Shown here piece by piece: positions 4,996 through 11,631 of a stretch of DNA of 13,180 nucleotides (position 1 is its first letter; the number at the start of each line of letters is the position of its first letter). Location: IMG/VR virus record IMGVR_UViG_3300032074_000001; one strand, 5' to 3'. This stretch comes from a virus. Taxonomy: Duplodnaviria; Heunggongvirae; Uroviricota; Caudoviricetes. The translations under genes and the position numbers were made by a program. The notes beneath the pieces are model-generated. The model was not told the origin of the DNA. It made no database searches and saw nothing but the letters and a program-made list of their open reading frames with translations.

Positions 4996-5128
4996 ACCCA
5001 TCGTCCTGAACGTGATCCAGCCGAACATCGACGCCCGCTGCCACCACGAGCAGCTTCGCTCCAGTGGCGTCTGGACCTGCCAGATCGTCGGCTGCGACGG
5101 TGTTCACCACTACTTCGTCCGCTCATGA
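4985..5128 (+). CDS. Small Cys/His protein (47 aa) MSSEPIVLNVIQPNIDARCHHEQLRSSGVWTCQIVGCDGVHHYFVRS
   Basis: Overlaps helicase end by 11 nt, ATGA-coupled to the next gene; GC3-rich; below ORF-track cutoff. Confidence 0.7.
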   Translation: MSSEPIVLNVIQPNIDARCHHEQLRSSGVWTCQIVGCDGVHHYFVRS

Positions 5129-5262
5129 TCTGCGGAGCGATCAGCGACACGCTCTTCGGGCGTGAGCGGTGCAAGGAGGACTCGGATCACCGGGGACCGC
5201 ACTGGCGGAACACCGAGCCGATCTCCTGCGAGTGCAAGTACTTCTGCCGGTGCGAACGGTGA
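5125..5262 (+). CDS. Small Cys/His protein (45 aa) MICGAISDTLFGRERCKEDSDHRGPHWRNTEPISCECKYFCRCER
   Basis: ATGA/GTGA coupling on both sides; C-x12-C-x5-HxGxH pattern. Confidence 0.7.
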   Translation: MICGAISDTLFGRERCKEDSDHRGPHWRNTEPISCECKYFCRCER

Positions 5263-5387
5263 ACCTCTTCCACGAGTTCGGCGCGTGGCTCTTCTTCCAC
5301 GATGTACACATCACCCCGTTCGGGATCGCTGGGTTGTTCTGCCTGTTCTCACTCCTCGACAACTTGATCGAACGGGTGAAGCGGTGA
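5259..5387 (+). CDS. Small membrane protein (42 aa)
   Basis: GTGA coupling on both sides; hydrophobic ITPFGIAGLFCLFSLL. Confidence 0.7.
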   Translation: MNLFHEFGAWLFFHDVHITPFGIAGLFCLFSLLDNLIERVKR

Positions 5388-6322
5388 ACTACGCACACAC
5401 GCTGTCCGAGGCGATCACCAAGGGCCACGGCACCGAGCGCACCTTCCTGTGTCCGGTACACGGCGACAGCCGTCCGTCCGCGAGCCTCAACATCATCAAG
5501 CAGAAGTGGGTCTGCTACACCTGCGGCGCTCACGGTGGTCTCACCGGGGAGGACGCCCTGATGGAGCCCGACTACCTCCAGATGAAGCTGTGGTTCACCG
5601 AGAAGCTGGAGGAGAAGCGTGTCTACCCCGAAGCCTGGCTCGCCCGCTGGGACGCAGGACCCGTCCACCCTTACTGGACCGCTCGTGTTGGAGACGATGC
5701 GGCGCGTCACTTCCGCCTTGGTGCTGACCCAGCAGCAGATGCGGTCACTTATCCCCTACGTCGAACGGATGGGGCAGTCCTGGGAGTCGTTCGCCGCCGC
5801 CTACAACCTGATGGTGGTCCCAAGTACCTCTATCCCAAGGGCATCGACGTGGGGCGGCTTCTCTTTAACTACAGCCCTGTACGACGAACTGCCGTCGTTC
5901 TCGTGGAGGGAGCCCTGGACGCCATCGCCCTATGGAACGTCGGAGTGGAAGCGTTCGCGATCTACGGTTCTCGACTTGGTGCGGAGCAGGTGCGCCTCAT
6001 CGACCGGATCGACCCCGACTACGTGTTCACCGCGTTCGACAACGATGACGCTGGCTACCGCGCTCACCGAGACGTGGAGCAGGCCATGCGGCACCGGCTC
6101 GTGTCCCGCATCACCTGGCCCGCTTCCTGGGGCAAGGACGTGGACGAGATCGGACCGGCACGCCTGAAAAATGTTGTGCATGACGTACTTGCGCTGACCA
6201 ACAGTGCATGTATAGAGTCTCCGTCATGCAGATCGCACGAAACATCGACAGCGAAGAGCAAGAAGCCCTCCTCCGTTACGTCCACGCGAAGCGGGATGCG
6301 GATCAAGCGATCCGCCGCGTAG
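5384..6322 (+). CDS. dnaG: DNA primase (CHC2 zinc finger + TOPRIM)
   Basis: CPVHGDSRPS...WVCYTCG zinc finger; PKY; TOPRIM VLVEGALD and AFDNDDAG; GTG 5384 coupled to upstream TGA. Confidence 0.93.
   Translation: MNYAHTLSEAITKGHGTERTFLCPVHGDSRPSASLNIIKQKWVCYTCGAHGGLTGEDALMEPDYLQMKLWFTEKLEEKRVYPEAWLARWDAGPVHPYWTARVGDDAARHFRLGADPAADAVTYPLRRTDGAVLGVVRRRLQPDGGPKYLYPKGIDVGRLLFNYSPVRRTAVVLVEGALDAIALWNVGVEAFAIYGSRLGAEQVRLIDRIDPDYVFTAFDNDDAGYRAHRDVEQAMRHRLVSRITWPASWGKDVDEIGPARLKNVVHDVLALTNSACIESPSCRSHETSTAKSKKPSSVTSTRSGMRIKRSAA
5619..6167 (+). CDS. Putative overprinted ORF in the +1 frame of primase (182 aa)
   Basis: SD GGAGG 6 nt before GTG 5619; 28/46 primase codons at 5681-5818 end in A/T versus 7/77 before the ORF start. 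Confidence 0.55.
   Translation: MSTPKPGSPAGTQDPSTLTGPLVLETMRRVTSALVLTQQQMRSLIPYVERMGQSWESFAAAYNLMVVPSTSIPRASTWGGFSLTTALYDELPSFSWREPWTPSPYGTSEWKRSRSTVLDLVRSRCASSTGSTPTTCSPRSTTMTLATALTETWSRPCGTGSCPASPGPLPGARTWTRSDRHA
6189..6218 (+). promoter_or_regulatory. Promoter inside primase 3' end, driving a leaderless mRNA
   Basis: TTGCGC-N18-TAGAGT, 7 nt before ATG 6226; no SD. Confidence 0.6.
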
Positions 6323-6648
6323 AAGAGGCCGAGACTCAGCTGCTGGCGGTCATGGCCAAGCACCAGCGGAAGAACCTCACGCTCTCCTCGGAGGGCAAGA
6401 AGTTCTCTGCCACCTACACCCAGCGGACCACCAACCAGATCAACGAGTCGGGCTTGCGCAAGGCGCTCACCGCGAAGGTCTACGACAAGTTCACGGTGAA
6501 GAAGCTGGACAAGAAGGCGCTGGAGCAGGCCATGTCCGATGGTGTGGTCGATCCGCACGTCGTCGCGAGGTTCGTAGAGCTGGTACCAGGCAAGACCTAC
6601 GTGACCTATCGAGAGAAGGAAGAAGCAGATGAACCCGCAGGTGTATGA
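6226..6648 (+). CDS. Hypothetical protein (140 aa), N-terminal coiled coil; loosely Gam/Gp157-like
   Basis: GC3-rich; heptad-like N-terminus and VKKLDKKALEQA segment; family call is weak. Confidence 0.8.
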   Translation: MQIARNIDSEEQEALLRYVHAKRDADQAIRRVEEAETQLLAVMAKHQRKNLTLSSEGKKFSATYTQRTTNQINESGLRKALTAKVYDKFTVKKLDKKALEQAMSDGVVDPHVVARFVELVPGKTYVTYREKEEADEPAGV

Positions 6649-6961
6649 CGCTGACGAGATCAAGGGGGAGACCCGGATCTCACCCGCGCAGCGGATCATC
6701 GACTCCCTCGACGGCGACTTCAAGACGATGCGACAGACCGCCGAGTTGGTGGGTGTCCACATCGAGACCCTCCGTCGCCTGTGCCGGACCCCTCGGGTGA
6801 AGGCCCCGTCGAAGGCGACGAAGCAGGGCAAGCTGGTGATCTACCTGTTCACCCCCGAGGACGTGGAGGAGGTCAAGGCGTACTTCAACCAGCGCGACAA
6901 GCTCCAGAGTGAGACGGGAGCCGGTCCGCATCCCAACCAGAAGACAGAGCAGATCAGGTGA
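6629..6961 (+). CDS. MerR/excisionase-like HTH DNA-binding protein
   Basis: KTMRQTAELVGVHIETLRRL helix-turn-helix and YLFTPEDVEEV wing/helix. Confidence 0.85.
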   Translation: MNPQVYDADEIKGETRISPAQRIIDSLDGDFKTMRQTAELVGVHIETLRRLCRTPRVKAPSKATKQGKLVIYLFTPEDVEEVKAYFNQRDKLQSETGAGPHPNQKTEQIR

Positions 6962-7194
6962 AGATAGCCAAACGAAGCGAACACTTCATCCGCGAGGGCG
7001 ACACGATCACCGTCGCGGTGACTCACGAGATCAAGATCGGTGGTGAGTCCTCGTGGGTCCGCTACGAGACCACCACCAAGGTCAACCAAGAGACATCTGA
7101 AGAGGCCAGCGCACGAGCCATCGGGTTCGTCAATCAAGGGGCCATCACCGCAGTCCACGACACCGTTGCAGTAGTCAGAGGAGTAGTGAAGTAA
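6958..7194 (+). CDS. Hypothetical protein (78 aa)
   Basis: GTGA-coupled start, TAATG-coupled to SSB. Confidence 0.8.
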   Translation: MKIAKRSEHFIREGDTITVAVTHEIKIGGESSWVRYETTTKVNQETSEEASARAIGFVNQGAITAVHDTVAVVRGVVK

Positions 7195-8045
7195 TGAAGT
7201 TTGGACAGACCTGGAACCCGGACGCCGAGGAAGAGACCACCACCGGTAGCTCCGACTACCTGCGGTACTTCAAGGGAGCCGAGACCACCTTCCGTCTCCT
7301 TCAGGAGCCGAACGAGTGGATCGACTACTGGGAGCACTTCAACCCGAACGGCTACCCGTTCCCCTGCACCCGCGACCGGAAGACCTGCCCCGGCTGCACC
7401 AGCAACAACGACAAGATGAAGAAGGCGAGCAAGAAGATCGCCGTCCAGGTGCTGGAGGGTGAGTGGGTCAACGCCTACAAGCTCCCCAAGACCGTGGCCG
7501 ACAAGCTCGCCAACCGCGCCAACCGGATCGGCACCGTCACCGACCGTGACTACACCGTGTTCAAGCTCCAGACCAAGAACGCGGACGGCTCCACGAAGAC
7601 CGACTACGACGTGGAGGGCGGCGACAAGATCCCGGTGGACATCGCTGCGCTGAAGCCGAAGTTCAAGGACGTGGAGACGATCCTGGGCTCCATGTACGAC
7701 CAGGCGTGGGGCAACCCCGACGCCGCCATGCAGAACAAGGACGAGGCCGAGCAGGACCAGGCCCGCTCTTCGCTGAAGGAGCGCATCGCTGCCCAGCAGC
7801 GAGCGACCACCGAGCAGATGCAGGAGGACCGCGTTCCTCTGGCCAAGGACCCGGAGCCCGAGTGGGCCTCTCGTCCTGCCGAGGACGCTCCCAAGGCCGA
7901 GGAGCCGAAGGTGTGGACCGAGGAGGAGCTGCGTGCCCTCCCGTACGACCGCATCGTCGTGGTGGCCAAGGAGGAGGGCATGGACCTGCCCGACGACCTG
8001 GAGGAGACCACCAACGCCGTGGTTGACTGGCTGCTCGACCAGTAG
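7194..8045 (+). CDS. Phage single-stranded DNA-binding protein (T4 gp32-like) with C-terminal extension
   Basis: FRLL, YWEH, CTRDRKTCPGC Zn site, RDYTVFK, TDYDV; acidic C-terminal region; position in replication module. Confidence 0.75.
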   Translation: MKFGQTWNPDAEEETTTGSSDYLRYFKGAETTFRLLQEPNEWIDYWEHFNPNGYPFPCTRDRKTCPGCTSNNDKMKKASKKIAVQVLEGEWVNAYKLPKTVADKLANRANRIGTVTDRDYTVFKLQTKNADGSTKTDYDVEGGDKIPVDIAALKPKFKDVETILGSMYDQAWGNPDAAMQNKDEAEQDQARSSLKERIAAQQRATTEQMQEDRVPLAKDPEPEWASRPAEDAPKAEEPKVWTEEELRALPYDRIVVVAKEEGMDLPDDLEETTNAVVDWLLDQ

Positions 8046-8053
8046 AACCGGAC

Positions 8054-8092
8054 GACCCCCGCATCATGTGATCCGCCCGTGGTGCGGGGGTC
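8054..8092 (+). other. GC-rich hairpin between SSB stop and tRNA
   Basis: GACCCCCGCA/TGCGGGGGTC 10-bp stem, extendable inward with G-U pairs; no U tail. Confidence 0.6.
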
Positions 8093-8098
8093 AGCCAA

Positions 8099-8171
8099 TG
8101 GGACGTAGCTCAGCTGGCAGAGCGCCCGACTGTTAATCGGGTGGTCGCAGGTTCGAATCCTGCCGTCTCAG
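8099..8171 (+). tRNA. tRNA-Asn (GTT), CCA not encoded
   Basis: Acceptor TGGGACG/CGTCTCA, D arm, anticodon arm CCCGA-CTGTTAA-TCGGG, T loop GGTTCGAATCC, discriminator G. Confidence 0.96.
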
Positions 8172-8173
8172 CG

Positions 8174-8211
8174 AGAAGGCGAGTGTGATGTGGGTCCACT
8201 CGCCTTCTTTT
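8174..8211 (+). terminator. Intrinsic terminator after tRNA
   Basis: 12-bp stem AGAAGGCGAGTG/CACTCGCCTTCT followed by T run. Confidence 0.8.
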
Positions 8212-8217
8212 GTCCCC

Positions 8218-8246
8218 TTTTCAGTCACTACATCACATGCTAGGTT
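8218..8246 (+). promoter_or_regulatory. dnaE promoter, leaderless
   Basis: TTTTCA-N17-TAGGTT with TGn extension, 6 nt before ATG 8253; no SD. Confidence 0.6.
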
Positions 8247-8252
8247 CTCCTC

Positions 8253-10949
8253 ATGCAGATCGTACGGACGCCGAAGCGGCGGATGCAGATCCAGCGGACG
8301 CCTCGCTGGTGGTCTCTCCACACGCACTCGCGGTACTCCAACAACGACGCGCTCCCGGCTGTGTCTGACATCGTGGCGAAGGCCGCAGCCTTGGGCCAGA
8401 AGGCTGTAGGTCTCACCGACCATGGCAACATGGCCGGGAGCGTGGAGCTGTACCAGGCGTGCAAGAAGCATGGTCTGGCCCCCTTCCCTGGGTCAGAGAT
8501 GTACTTCGTGCCCGACATCTCGCAGCACAAGAAGGACTACGCCGACAAGAACAAGAAGGCGTCCAGGTTCCACCTGGGCGTGGTCGCGTACTCCACCGAG
8601 GGCTACGAGAACCTGGTGCGGCTGTCCACGGTGAGCCACCAGCAGCACTTCCACAAGCCGCTGGTGGACTTCACAACCCTGGCTCAGTTGGCGGACGATG
8701 GTCGGACCAAGGGTCTGGCGATCACCACCGGGTGCTACTTCGGCTACGCGGTGCAGACCCTCGTCAACGAGGGGGATGAGGCAGTTGAGCGCTACCTCGC
8801 CACGCTGGAGTCATGGTTCCCCGAGTCGGTCTACGTCGAGATTCAGAACCATCACATCGATCACGATGATCACTGGTGCGATGATCTCGTTGCCGATCAA
8901 CTTGTGGATGTTGCGGATCGCATGGGACTTCCTGTGGTCATCACGCAGGATTCGCACTACCTAGAGCCTGAGGACAAGAGTGACCACGAGGCCCTCAAAC
9001 GACTCGTCGCCTTCGGACCCGAAGCAGACGATGCAGTCTTCCCCGGTGATGGCTTTCAGTTCGGAACTGAGGACTGGATCAGAGACCATCACCGTGACCA
9101 TCGGCTTGCGCGAGGACTGGAAGGACTGGACCATCTCCTCGCTCGCCATGAACTCCGAATCCCGGTCCTTGACTCTTACTCTTACGCGGTCCCCGCAGTC
9201 GTAGCCAGCCCGCAGCAGGCCATGGAGGATCGCTGTCGGCAGGCGCTGGCGGCGAAGGATCTCTACACGCCCAAGTACATCGACAAGCTGACCGAGGAGT
9301 TCGACACCATCAAGGCGTCGGACATGGCTGGCTACATGATGCTGGTGGCCATGGTGACCGACTGGCTCACCGAGGAGGGCGTGCCGTTCCAGACCCGTGG
9401 CTCTGCCGCTGGCTCCCTGGTGTGCTGGCTGTTGGGGATCACCCAGGTGGACCCGATCAAGTGGGACCTGCGCTTCGACCGGTTCTTGTCCAAGGACCGC
9501 ACCAAGCCCCCGGACATCGACCTGGACATCGCCCACGACCGGCGTCAGGAGCTGATCGACATGCTCGACACCCGGTTCTCGGCGCACCAGATCGGCTCCT
9601 GGGCCACCTACGGCATGGACAACGACGAGGGTGAGGACAAGGGCTCGCTGCTGAAGCGGTACTTCAGCCGCAACAAGCACCGGGAGAACCCCATCGAGAA
9701 GTGGGAGGACATCCCCGAGGCCGACCGCAAGATGCTCTACCGGCTCTCGGACCGGAACCTGTTCTCCGGGATGGGCACCAACGCGGCGGGCGTGGTGATC
9801 ACCAGCACCAAGGAGGAGTTCGACCGACTGGTCCCGCTGGCCTACATGAACCGTGGCGGCTTCGTCACCCAGTACTCCAAGGACGACATCGAGGCACTGG
9901 GCCTGGTGAAGCTGGACGTGCTGGGGTCCAAGACCCTGACCGTGCTGCGCCGCACCATGGACAACCTGGACCTGCCGGTCTCGGCGCTGCTGGAGATCCC
10001 GCTGGGGGACAGACCCACCTTCTCCTTCATGCGCAAGGGCGACACCGCTGGCATCTTCCAGCTGGAGGGCTACACCTCGGCCAAGGGTGTGAAGCGGCTG
10101 CGTCCGAGCAGCATCAAGGACGTGATCGCAGCCATGGCGCTGTTCCGCCCCGGCGCGATGATCAGCGGAGGCACCGACGCCTTCATCCGCCGCAAGCACC
10201 GGGAGGAGCAGGTGCCCGAGCGACACGCCTTGGTCTCTCGGGTCACCGCCTCTACCTACGGGGTGATGCTGTACCAGGAGCAGGTTATCGACATCCTGCG
10301 TGGCCTGGGCATGGACGCCGACAACCTCACCAAGTTCCTGAAGGCAGTCAAGGCGTCGAACAAGAACATCGGAGCAGCCGCCGAGGTGATCGCCTCCTAC
10401 AAGGGCTGGATCGATGACAAGACCACCGAGATGGGGATGAGCGATGAGGACAAGAGGTTCTTGGACGAGTCGATCCAGGGGTTCAGCGAGTACGGCTTCA
10501 ACCGGGCGCACGCGACGGTTTACGGTCTTACTGCTTACCGCTGTGCTTGGCTGGCTGTTCACCACGGCGTTGAGTTCCACGCTGCTCTTCTTGCTGTGGC
10601 GGCGGGCGATCCAAAGAAGGAACCCGGCTACGTTACGGCTACTCGTAGGCGAGGGATCAAGATCAGCCGAGCCGACATCAACGTCAGCGGAGCCACCTAC
10701 ACCGTTGATCGGCGCACTGCGAGCATCCGGCGCGGTCTCCAGTCTCTTGACGGAATCGGAGAGACGGTTGCTGCCGCCGTGGTGGGAGCAAGAGCGGACC
10801 GACCGTTCGCAGATGTCGCAGATCTGGTGCGACGAGTACCTGCGCGACCTGTGAGCGGCGGCAAGAACTACGCCAAGGAGGGCCTCGACGGGCTCACCGG
10901 GGTGCTGCGCAAGCTGTACGAACAGCACGCACTGGACTCGATCCTGTGA
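8253..10949 (+). CDS. dnaE: DNA polymerase III alpha subunit (DnaE-like), compact, PHP intact
   Basis: PHP HTH..D, TDHG, GSE, FHL, TTGC, QDSH; RGSAAGS; PDIDLD; KLDVLG; GIFQLE; YQEQ; YGFNRAH; HhH GLQSLDGIG. Confidence 0.97.
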   Translation: MQIVRTPKRRMQIQRTPRWWSLHTHSRYSNNDALPAVSDIVAKAAALGQKAVGLTDHGNMAGSVELYQACKKHGLAPFPGSEMYFVPDISQHKKDYADKNKKASRFHLGVVAYSTEGYENLVRLSTVSHQQHFHKPLVDFTTLAQLADDGRTKGLAITTGCYFGYAVQTLVNEGDEAVERYLATLESWFPESVYVEIQNHHIDHDDHWCDDLVADQLVDVADRMGLPVVITQDSHYLEPEDKSDHEALKRLVAFGPEADDAVFPGDGFQFGTEDWIRDHHRDHRLARGLEGLDHLLARHELRIPVLDSYSYAVPAVVASPQQAMEDRCRQALAAKDLYTPKYIDKLTEEFDTIKASDMAGYMMLVAMVTDWLTEEGVPFQTRGSAAGSLVCWLLGITQVDPIKWDLRFDRFLSKDRTKPPDIDLDIAHDRRQELIDMLDTRFSAHQIGSWATYGMDNDEGEDKGSLLKRYFSRNKHRENPIEKWEDIPEADRKMLYRLSDRNLFSGMGTNAAGVVITSTKEEFDRLVPLAYMNRGGFVTQYSKDDIEALGLVKLDVLGSKTLTVLRRTMDNLDLPVSALLEIPLGDRPTFSFMRKGDTAGIFQLEGYTSAKGVKRLRPSSIKDVIAAMALFRPGAMISGGTDAFIRRKHREEQVPERHALVSRVTASTYGVMLYQEQVIDILRGLGMDADNLTKFLKAVKASNKNIGAAAEVIASYKGWIDDKTTEMGMSDEDKRFLDESIQGFSEYGFNRAHATVYGLTAYRCAWLAVHHGVEFHAALLAVAAGDPKKEPGYVTATRRRGIKISRADINVSGATYTVDRRTASIRRGLQSLDGIGETVAAAVVGARADRPFADVADLVRRVPARPVSGGKNYAKEGLDGLTGVLRKLYEQHALDSIL
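8698..8964 (+). CDS. Putative overprinted single-TM protein in +1 frame of dnaE (88 aa; alternative start ATG 8776)
   Basis: 17/32 dnaE codons at 8841-8936 end in A/T; +1 frame reads ITSITMITGAMISLPINLWMLRIAWDFLW-SSRR. Confidence 0.55.
   Translation: MVGPRVWRSPPGATSATRCRPSSTRGMRQLSATSPRWSHGSPSRSTSRFRTITSITMITGAMISLPINLWMLRIAWDFLWSSRRIRTT
8980..9204 (+). CDS. Putative overprinted soluble protein in +1 frame of dnaE (74 aa)
   Basis: SD GAGGA 5 nt before GTG 8980; 31/74 dnaE codons at 8982-9203 end in A/T; stop made by rare GTA codon. Confidence 0.5.
   Translation: MTTRPSNDSSPSDPKQTMQSSPVMAFSSELRTGSETITVTIGLREDWKDWTISSLAMNSESRSLTLTLTRSPQS
10444..10854 (+). CDS. Putative overprinted single-TM protein in +1 frame of dnaE (136 aa)
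   Basis: 15/26 dnaE codons at 10518-10595 end in T, giving RR-FTVLLLTAVLGWLFTTALSSTLLFLLW-RR; codon bias reverts right after the TGA. Confidence 0.65.
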   Translation: MRTRGSWTSRSRGSASTASTGRTRRFTVLLLTAVLGWLFTTALSSTLLFLLWRRAIQRRNPATLRLLVGEGSRSAEPTSTSAEPPTPLIGALRASGAVSSLLTESERRLLPPWWEQERTDRSQMSQIWCDEYLRDL

Positions 10950-11317
10950 GCGTCCGCGATCAGGTGGTTGCCCGTGCCTGGGGTCGGTGCGAGTGCATGA
11001 TTCGTATCGGTGGACGGTGGACGCGCTGCTGGCGCAAGCCCATCGAGATCCACCACATGCTCACAAGAGCACGGGGAGGTCTGATCTTGGATGCAGCGGG
11101 GGAGACCGCTCACCTGATCGCCCTGTGTCCCGGACACCACAGAGTGGCTCACTCTCCCAACGGCCACCGGGCAGGACTGATGATGAATGGCTATGTCACC
11201 ACAGGAGAGGACGGCCTTCCTGTATACGCGGGGTCGGACCCAAGGCTCGCCGGACACATCCGAACCATGGACGTGCCAATGCTGCCGCCTCACCTATCCG
11301 GTGACTCATCTAGCTAG
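10946..11317 (+). CDS. HNH endonuclease family protein
   Basis: RCEC...C...EIHH..R.RGG....HLIALCPGHHRVAH pattern; GTGA-coupled to dnaE. Confidence 0.85.
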   Translation: MSVRDQVVARAWGRCECMIRIGGRWTRCWRKPIEIHHMLTRARGGLILDAAGETAHLIALCPGHHRVAHSPNGHRAGLMMNGYVTTGEDGLPVYAGSDPRLAGHIRTMDVPMLPPHLSGDSSS

Positions 11318-11381
11318 AGACTGCGAGGAGAAGCATGAGCGAGAAGGATGGCCCGAGCCCGAGGTCTATGCACAGGCTTGA
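11187..11381 (+). CDS. Small zinc-finger protein overlapping HNH and the next gene (64 aa)
   Basis: WTCQCCRLTYPVTHLARDCEEKH is a C2-C-H type pattern; AGGA upstream; preceded in frame by TGA TGA TGA. Confidence 0.65.
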   Translation: MAMSPQERTAFLYTRGRTQGSPDTSEPWTCQCCRLTYPVTHLARDCEEKHEREGWPEPEVYAQA

Positions 11382-11631
11382 CCCGGACTACTACCTGGTG
11401 AACAAGGACCGATGGCGGGAGGTCAAGCTCTGGGTGATCGAGCACGGCCTCAACCCCATGTCGATCCCTCGGGACGCCCTGGTGGAGTTCCTAGACGAAG
11501 ACCACCTGGAGATCGAGTCGTACGACATGTCCACTGGCCTCCCGGCCTGGGACGAAGACAAGAAGGAAGTGAAGCGAATCTGGCTCAACGTGCAGATCAA
11601 GCGACCCTTCCCCATGGATTGCATCAAGTAG
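11335..11631 (+). CDS. Hypothetical protein (98 aa)
   Basis: SD GAGGAG 4 nt before ATG; GC3-rich from about codon 12 (alternative start 11368). Confidence 0.8.
   Translation: MSEKDGPSPRSMHRLDPDYYLVNKDRWREVKLWVIEHGLNPMSIPRDALVEFLDEDHLEIESYDMSTGLPAWDEDKKEVKRIWLNVQIKRPFPMDCIK

Follow-up and report, generated by a model that had tools for sequence, protein, structure and literature searches.

Phage lambda carries Rz1 nested in Rz, and phiX174 carries E within D; in both pairs, the products and their functions have been demonstrated. A second precedent is the positionally conserved cluster of rare codons, which reportedly serves co-translational folding or translation attenuation and is associated with the names of Clarke and Clark (2008) and Chaney et al. 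(2017). The locus compared here with both precedents lies in a 13,180-nucleotide stretch of DNA from a Caudoviricetes virus (IMG/VR record IMGVR_UViG_3300032074_000001), termed the window below, which is part of a 40.6-kb phage-like contig of 62% G+C. The genes concerned are those for a DnaG-type primase, tRNA-Asn, a DnaE-type polymerase, and a small HNH-type protein. An earlier note on this DNA had proposed that open reading frames (ORFs) in the +1 frame of such genes form a hidden layer of five overprinted genes. Comparison with relatives does not support this multi-gene layer as stated, and points to codon patches that hold their position within one phage clade and to one segment of dnaE that is conserved at individual synonymous sites. 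The features on which the argument turns are as follows.

5384..6322, + strand: DnaG-type primase gene (Pfam Toprim_2 8e-12, Zn_ribbon_DnaG 9e-6)
5619..6167, + strand: +1 ORF in primase, 182 residues, with a GGAGG-N6-GTG start; not conserved
5633..5850, + strand: primase patch with 35-60% A/T-ending codons; present in the near clade, not in distant relatives
8253..10949, + strand: dnaE, for an 898-residue polymerase of the Pol III alpha type (Pfam PHP, DNA_pol3_alpha 2e-47, DNA_pol3_finger, HHH_6)
8698..8964, + strand: +1 ORF in dnaE, 88 residues; in relatives, the upstream half of one unbroken frame
8838..8984, + strand: patch P1a (dnaE codons 196-244), a regional enrichment of A/T-ending codons without site-specific wobble conservation between subclades
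8980..9204, + strand: candidate overlapping +1 gene, 74 residues, at GAGGA-N5-GTG; core at ~9030-9204, constraint peak at codons ~261-317
10444..10854, + strand: +1 ORF in dnaE, 136 residues; free of stops in 12 of 13 near relatives, peptide not conserved
10485..10850, + strand: patch P2 (dnaE codons 745-866), a regional enrichment of A/T-ending codons, T-rich in 10503-10592

Like Rz1 and phiX174 E, the candidate at 8980-9204 lies out of frame, on the same strand, inside a longer gene, and would constrain its host dnaE. Unlike those genes, it is a predicted gene, selection on the alternate frame looks neutral, and most of the ORFs proposed alongside it fail the comparison with relatives. P1a, P2, and the primase patch resemble rare-codon clusters in being enriched at homologous positions, independently of the amino acids encoded and without site-by-site conservation. 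They differ from them in being very long (60-120 codons) and in being found in one phage clade and not in cellular DnaE.

Codon patches in dnaE and primase

The codon alignment comprises 35 dnaE relatives of viral or metagenomic origin, 44-82% identical, that came from protein-guided scans; the patches lie at matching protein positions in at least 10 non-redundant uncultured relatives (60-82% identical). In the tree, subclade A consists of the window, L002, L016, and L001, and subclade B of L033, L007, L004, L006/L008, L005, and L009/L051. L003 is the sister of subclade B inside the near clade, and L010, clade C, and others lie farther away.

Outside the patches, about 90-100% of dnaE and primase codons end in C or G. 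A/T endings make up 17% of dnaE codons overall and 0-5% over 9423-10000, and they reach 45-55% in 20-codon windows at 8853-8942, 9063-9182, 10503-10652, and 10743-10862; in primase, they peak at 55-60% at 5702-5821. The earlier description of near-exclusive C/G-ending codons interrupted by sharp patches of 40-60% A/T endings was borne out by these measurements, with the A/T stretch at 5190-5400 assigned to a separate ORF. Wobble positions inside the patches have less G and more T and A, and main-frame position 1, which is the +1 wobble position, climbs to a G+C of 0.77-0.95. The shift touches nearly all amino acids: the share of A/T endings in patches versus elsewhere is 58% versus 12% for Asp, 45% versus 0% for Leu, and 67% versus 16% for Gly. 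It is therefore regional, and amino acid composition is ruled out as its source.

The patches occupy identical alignment positions in L001 and L002 and throughout subclades A and B, and L010, clade C, and L030 are among the further lineages that have patch 1. Between these groups, the remainder of the gene is near saturation at synonymous sites, so the patch composition has been maintained and not merely inherited. This conserved enrichment of rare codons at homologous positions is independent of amino acid composition and limited to this phage clade. A general folding pause in DnaE was considered and ruled out, since 16 high-GC homologues (15 from bacterial genome assemblies and 1 distant viral contig) lack the patches.

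Other A/T-rich wobble stretches occur in the same genes. Lineage-specific patches are present elsewhere in dnaE in L023, L026, L015, and L024 (codons ~451-510), in L010 (311-390), in L028 (321-430 and 541-600), and in L016 (21-60), so patchy G+C at third codon positions (GC3) is general in this dnaE family. The 3′ end of primase, 6143-6322, has 40-75% A/T-ending codons in all 16 aligned sequences, distant ones included; in the window, it overlaps an ORF at 6208-6648 (+2 frame) by 115 nucleotides, and subclade B primases are about 40 codons shorter.

All five stop-free ORFs listed in the earlier note exist in the +1 frame of their host genes, and every patch falls within a stop-free +1 ORF. Part of this coincidence follows from the genetic code. 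A +1 stop is possible only where the main-frame wobble base is a purine, and a T/C-rich, G-poor wobble therefore removes stops; T at the second position of a +1 codon encodes only Phe, Leu, Ile, Met, or Val, so a T-rich wobble reads as a "membrane helix". The earlier note had selection for hydrophobic +1 residues force T at the wobble position; the hydrophobicity is a mechanical result of wobble T. For the most part, the "+1 genes" of dnaE and primase are a mechanical consequence of the codon shift.

The primase ORF illustrates this consequence. A GGAGG-N6-GTG start is present at 5619, yet the ORF is not conserved, and no close relative keeps the hidden gene proposed at 5619-6167 free of +1 stops: they fall at codons 167 and 171 in L016, at codon 151 in L001, and at codons 96-99 in four of five subclade B sequences. 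Observed +1 stops equal those expected under synonymous permutation everywhere, and the A/T patch is kept in subclade B primase although the +1 frame is broken there. On these comparisons, the ORF is judged to be a by-product of the codon shift.

The two dnaE ORFs at 8698-8964 and 10444-10854 do not behave as hidden genes either. Wobble identity between subclades A and B beyond that expected from composition is 0.03 in P1a, 0.09 in P2a, and 0.18 in P2b, versus 0.18 in the rest of the gene, and a sliding-window profile shows no constraint peak at P1a or P2, whether A is compared with B or sequences are compared within B. At equal main-frame identity, the +1 peptides of P1a and P2 are less alike than the off-frame baseline (z -2.5 to -4.9). 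An OLGenie-style ratio, pNN/pNS, relates changes that are non-synonymous in both frames to those that are non-synonymous in dnaE only; it is 1.43 in P1a, 1.00 in P2a, 0.71 in P2b (confidence interval (CI) 0.55-0.92), and 0.90 in the rest of the gene (0.82-0.98). Purifying selection on the +1 amino acid sequence was not detected in P1a or P2a and is marginal in P2b. Within subclade A, synonymous identity in P1a and P2 is mildly raised (0.27-0.41 versus 0.18), which is compatible with a young, lineage-specific ORF.

The two proposed membrane-anchored proteins are similarly restricted. The hydrophobic, transmembrane-like segment of 10444-10854 is found only in the four members of subclade A, and the corresponding columns of subclade B are rich in Arg, Ser, and Thr. 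The hydrophobic tail of 8698-8964 is not conserved and is limited to the same four members. AlphaFold2 applied to the 10444-10854 alignment predicts one long hydrophobic helix, with a predicted local distance difference test (pLDDT) score below 50 for the remainder. Pfam and PHROG searches with all +1 ORFs returned no significant match.

Taken together, the conserved position, the involvement of all amino acids, the enrichment of both A and T, the lack of site-level conservation, and the restriction to one clade point to selection on a regional property. It is about as likely as not that selection on such a property, and not on the amino acids read in +1, maintains the patch composition.

Whether the frames are open beyond expectation was evaluated against a null in which synonymous codons were permuted within each patch, keeping the protein and local codon usage. 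This permutation expects 0.6-2.9 +1 stops per sequence, with a probability of zero stops of 0.02-0.49; outside the patches, the ratio of observed to expected stops is 0.92, which indicates a roughly calibrated null. In relatives, a single uninterrupted +1 frame spans 8698-8964 and 8980-9204; in the window, one CTA|G at 8961-8964 splits it. This P1 frame has no stop between codon ~185 and 306-317 in subclades A and B, L010, clade C, and L030. In 12 of 13 near relatives, the P2 frame runs without a stop from codon 729, where they share one, past codon 866. Overall, 11-12 of 13 near relatives have these frames open, with bounding stops in common, and the +1 frame within patches shows gene-like G+C by codon position. 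For the ORF at 10444, most relatives have an ATG at the third or fourth codon past the stop, and the window has a purine-rich GGGGA 7 nucleotides upstream. The depletion of stops in P1 and P2 beyond the null is suggestive of frames that are kept open.

Several observations weigh against selection on a regional property. The patches are not present in cellular DnaE. Summed over 18 related sequences, P1 contains 2 stops versus ~28 expected, in a region picked post hoc. In P2, Leu and Val codons ahead of an A-starting codon avoid G (15/16, ten different columns; again in related sequences and post hoc). A mere by-product would not lead one to expect either depletion. Where the A/T patch has been lost, in L003 (P1) and L016 (832-855), the ORF is broken as well, as overprinting predicts.

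Among possible causes of the regional shift, conserved rare-codon clusters are the favoured candidate, held tentatively and at less than even odds. Long clusters of this kind would slow or limit the translation of DnaE and primase. Fast-evolving +1 ORFs that are kept open, and a need for lower G+C at the level of DNA or RNA, are both unlikely and on a par with each other, and a neutral history is a little less likely than either. Searches for other signals were negative. RNAalifold runs against column shuffles found no conserved RNA structure in the patches on either strand (z -1.4 to +2.4), Rfam matched the tRNA only, no promoter was found in 8200-11400, and three terminator-like matches are not conserved features. 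The antisense frames a1 and a2 and the +2 frame are broken within the patches. Codon-complement antisense coding was also considered and rejected, as this frame is open nearly throughout, which high GC3 leads one to expect, and its breaks differ among relatives.

The model of the earlier note, in which four or five functional +1 proteins, two of them membrane-anchored, are encoded on primase, dnaE, and HNH and their residues drive the A/T wobble, is improbable. It would account for the coincidence of patches with +1 ORFs, for the open, stop-depleted P1 and P2 frames with shared bounding stops, for their gene-like G+C, and for the joint loss of patch and ORF in L003 and L016. However, the relatives divide the ORFs. 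Bounding stops and open frames are mostly kept in dnaE P1 and P2, including a +1 stop at codon 316/317, and the primase frame is broken in all close relatives while its patch persists in subclade B; synonymous constraint is present at codons ~261-320 and not between subclades in P1a and P2. The model also has to contend with +1 peptides that evolve faster than the off-frame baseline, with pNN/pNS values not below the gene-wide value save in the marginal P2b, with transmembrane-like segments that subclade B lacks, with a stop in the window's own P1 frame, and with +1 ORFs that have no family matches. The alternative offered alongside it, that the patches are pieces recombined from a lower-GC phage whose codon usage has yet to drift back, is very improbable: low-GC members do exist in the same DnaE family (GC3 0.36-0.58) and relatives hold lineage-specific patches at other places, but patch-to-rest identity ratios towards low-GC lineages are ordinary (0.96-1.14), with no special affinity, and patches that are co-located in lineages otherwise near synonymous saturation are old and maintained.

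The constrained segment of dnaE at ~9030-9204

The strongest synonymous constraint in dnaE lies at codons 261-320, with an excess of 0.56-0.68 versus a mean of 0.17-0.25 (standard deviation 0.12-0.13). The profile was computed within A, within B, and for A against B, and gave the same peak each time. Among four-fold sites, 10 of 21 are wobble-conserved in codons 261-320 versus 33 of 236 elsewhere. The conserved wobble sites include the rare codons CTT, CGA, and TCT, and CTC and GTC replace the usual CTG and GTG. About one third of DnaE residues differ between subclades A and B here, so recent transfer does not explain the identical wobble bases. In about ten relatives, the synonymous constraint on ~9030-9204 is real and site-specific.

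Two further observations concern the surrounding sequence. A weaker second constraint peak at 9303-9450 (codons 351-400; excess 0.33-0.41 for A against B and within A) is accompanied by neither an A/T-codon patch nor a long +1 ORF. Direct repeats occur in 9069-9138, with GAGGACTGGA at 9069 and 9112, AAGGACTGGA at 9121, and GACCATC three times; the copies fall in two frames and encode EDWI in dnaE and EDWKDW in the +1 frame.

The simplest reading of the constrained segment is a short gene in the +1 frame for a predicted protein, a tentative reading that falls somewhat short of even odds. Its overlap with the strongest constraint peak makes the ORF 8980-9204 a credible candidate, unproven as it stands. 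The +1 stop at codon 316/317 is conserved, and 9 of 10 relatives have a start codon at most 4 codons from 8980, behind a GAGGAC that is also set by main-frame Glu-Asp. The +1 peptide is 45-69% identical among relatives (z +2.2), with the core L-R-E-x-W-K-x-W-x-I-S-S ... S-L-T-L-T. In L003, the DnaE residues are the same, the wobble bases are G/C, and three +1 stops are present, which makes this sequence a natural loss variant. AlphaFold2, run without an off-frame control, predicts a four-stranded sheet with a mean pLDDT of 75.7 and values of 80-90 for residues 21-70; searches with this model (Foldseek against PDB; ESM Atlas) gave no meaningful structural match. Against a protein stand the pNN/pNS of 0.92 in the core (CI 0.56-1.47), a value from a short core with low power, and the window's own copy, which lacks the upstream half of the +1 frame. 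The earlier claim of an overprinted gene at 8980-9204 keeps the strongest synonymous constraint and the conserved stop on its side, and is weakened by the near-neutral ratio.

A profile search with the 8980-9204 peptide matched five database proteins (P0001-P0005). On L163 (an ENA contig of 75.5 kb) and L164 (a JGI contig of 4 kb), dnaE is split across frames, as is dnaB on L163, and gene callers report the homologous +1 ORF as a "hypothetical protein" of 107-109 residues. Both traced proteins sit on these contigs with frameshifted dnaE, and thus are gene-caller artefacts that provide no evidence of expression.

A nucleic acid signal within dnaE, such as a protein-binding DNA site, an mRNA regulatory or processing site, or a frameshift or pause signal, is an unlikely explanation of the segment, and one that several of its features would suit. 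Conservation at the nucleotide level extends to all three codon positions, 9069-9130 contains three copies of the motif GAGGACTGGA / AAGGACTGGA that are split between two frames, the core has a pNN/pNS close to 1, and no ATG or strong ribosome-binding site is common to all relatives. However, RNAalifold found no conserved RNA structure in ~9030-9204 (z -0.3 to +2.4), Rfam gave no match and no promoter-like site was found there, and the first repeat copy is conserved in the window and L002 only. The open +1 frame with its conserved stop, and a peptide that folds confidently in silico, also favour the short gene over such a signal. A programmed +1 frameshift that would yield, in a dnaX-like manner, a truncated PHP-domain product with a +1 tail ending at stop 316/317 is hardly credible: rare codons (CTT, CGA, GGA) are conserved at 9105-9125, and the upstream +1 frame is kept open ahead of a conserved stop, but no recognisable slippery or stimulator motif is present, and the shifted dnaE of L163 and L164 resembles an assembly error because other L163 genes are also split.

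The HNH tail and neighbouring features

The fifth +1 gene of the earlier note lies on the tail of the HNH-type gene, and the features here are as follows.

10946..11317, + strand: HNH-type nuclease gene (PHROG 740, E 3e-4)
11187..11381, + strand: small conserved ORF, 64 residues, with a W-x-C-x2-C ... A-R-D-C-E-x2-H motif; overlaps the HNH tail
11335..11631, + strand: next gene downstream of HNH, starting at an ATG with GAGGAG-N4 ahead

The HNH assignment comes from the PHROG family, annotated "HNH endonuclease", as no Pfam match was obtained at E <= 0.001; the motifs EIHHMLTRARGG and CPGHH are conserved in ~30 relatives. In the window, the HNH frame ends at a TAG at 11315-11317, 7 codons early. 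The same frame in L002 and L016 continues (…EGLRGQ…) to or near the start of the next gene, with the TGA of L002 in an ATGA junction, and the frame of L001 ends earlier, at a GTGA junction.

The ORF 11187-11381 is found in L002, L016, L001, and L003. W28, C30, C33, A43-R44-D45-C46-E47, and H50 are invariant in five relatives. Along the tail of HNH, identity is ~70% in the +1 frame versus ~35% in the HNH frame, by our own count, and the ORF also overlaps the first 47 nucleotides of the next gene. In L003, the HNH stop precedes the conserved core of the ORF. Pfam and PHROG gave no match for this ORF, and a word-index search gave no database homologue. Judged by this conservation, a real small gene very likely lies at 11187-11381, zinc-finger-like by its predicted ligands, and in subclade A the HNH frame extends across it in a poorly conserved stretch.

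This part of the earlier proposal thus stands as a conserved small gene, and as an ordinary neighbour with long terminal overlaps that lies outside any hidden layer of the replisome. Like the start of primase and the end of HNH in relatives, it fits a packed phage operon with ATGA and GTGA junctions. Unlike ordinary terminal overlaps, the one with HNH is long (~130 nucleotides), because the HNH frame has apparently been extended across a formerly separate mini-gene, as the arrangement in L003 indicates.

At the other end of the region, the primase start is GTG 5384, which shares a GTGA with the stop of the upstream ORF, and relatives align from residue 1-3 of a start at 5393. A start at GTG 5162 would give a spurious longer ORF and is ruled out by the alignment of relatives and by the GTGA junction. 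The separate ORF upstream, 5169-5387, encodes 72 residues between dnaB and primase, with gene-like G+C per codon position and the hydrophobic stretch GAWLFFHDVHITPFGIAGLFCLFSLL.

A tRNA-Asn (anticodon GTT) lies at 8099-8172, directly upstream of dnaE. DNA searches identified no close GenBank phage, and this tRNA is the sole DNA similarity of 5100-11400 to GenBank phages (83-89%, in Gordonia and Mycobacterium phages).

Implications for the phage clade

A broader outcome would join the constrained segment to the patches around it. In that case, 8980-9204 would be a genuine second gene for a four-stranded beta-sheet protein of 55-74 residues, present in about ten relatives with one loss, and the neighbouring patches (8838-8984 and 10444-10854) would be younger, fast-evolving +1 ORFs that selection keeps open, one of them a membrane peptide of subclade A. 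Such a multi-ORF overprint on a replicative polymerase is doubtful on the present comparison.

If 8980-9204 is translated, it would represent a clean case of a new gene arising within a strongly conserved replicative polymerase, for which L003 provides a natural loss variant. If it is not, the locus would serve as a cautionary case, in which a shift of a high-GC phage towards T/C endings creates long, stop-free +1 frames that appear hydrophobic.

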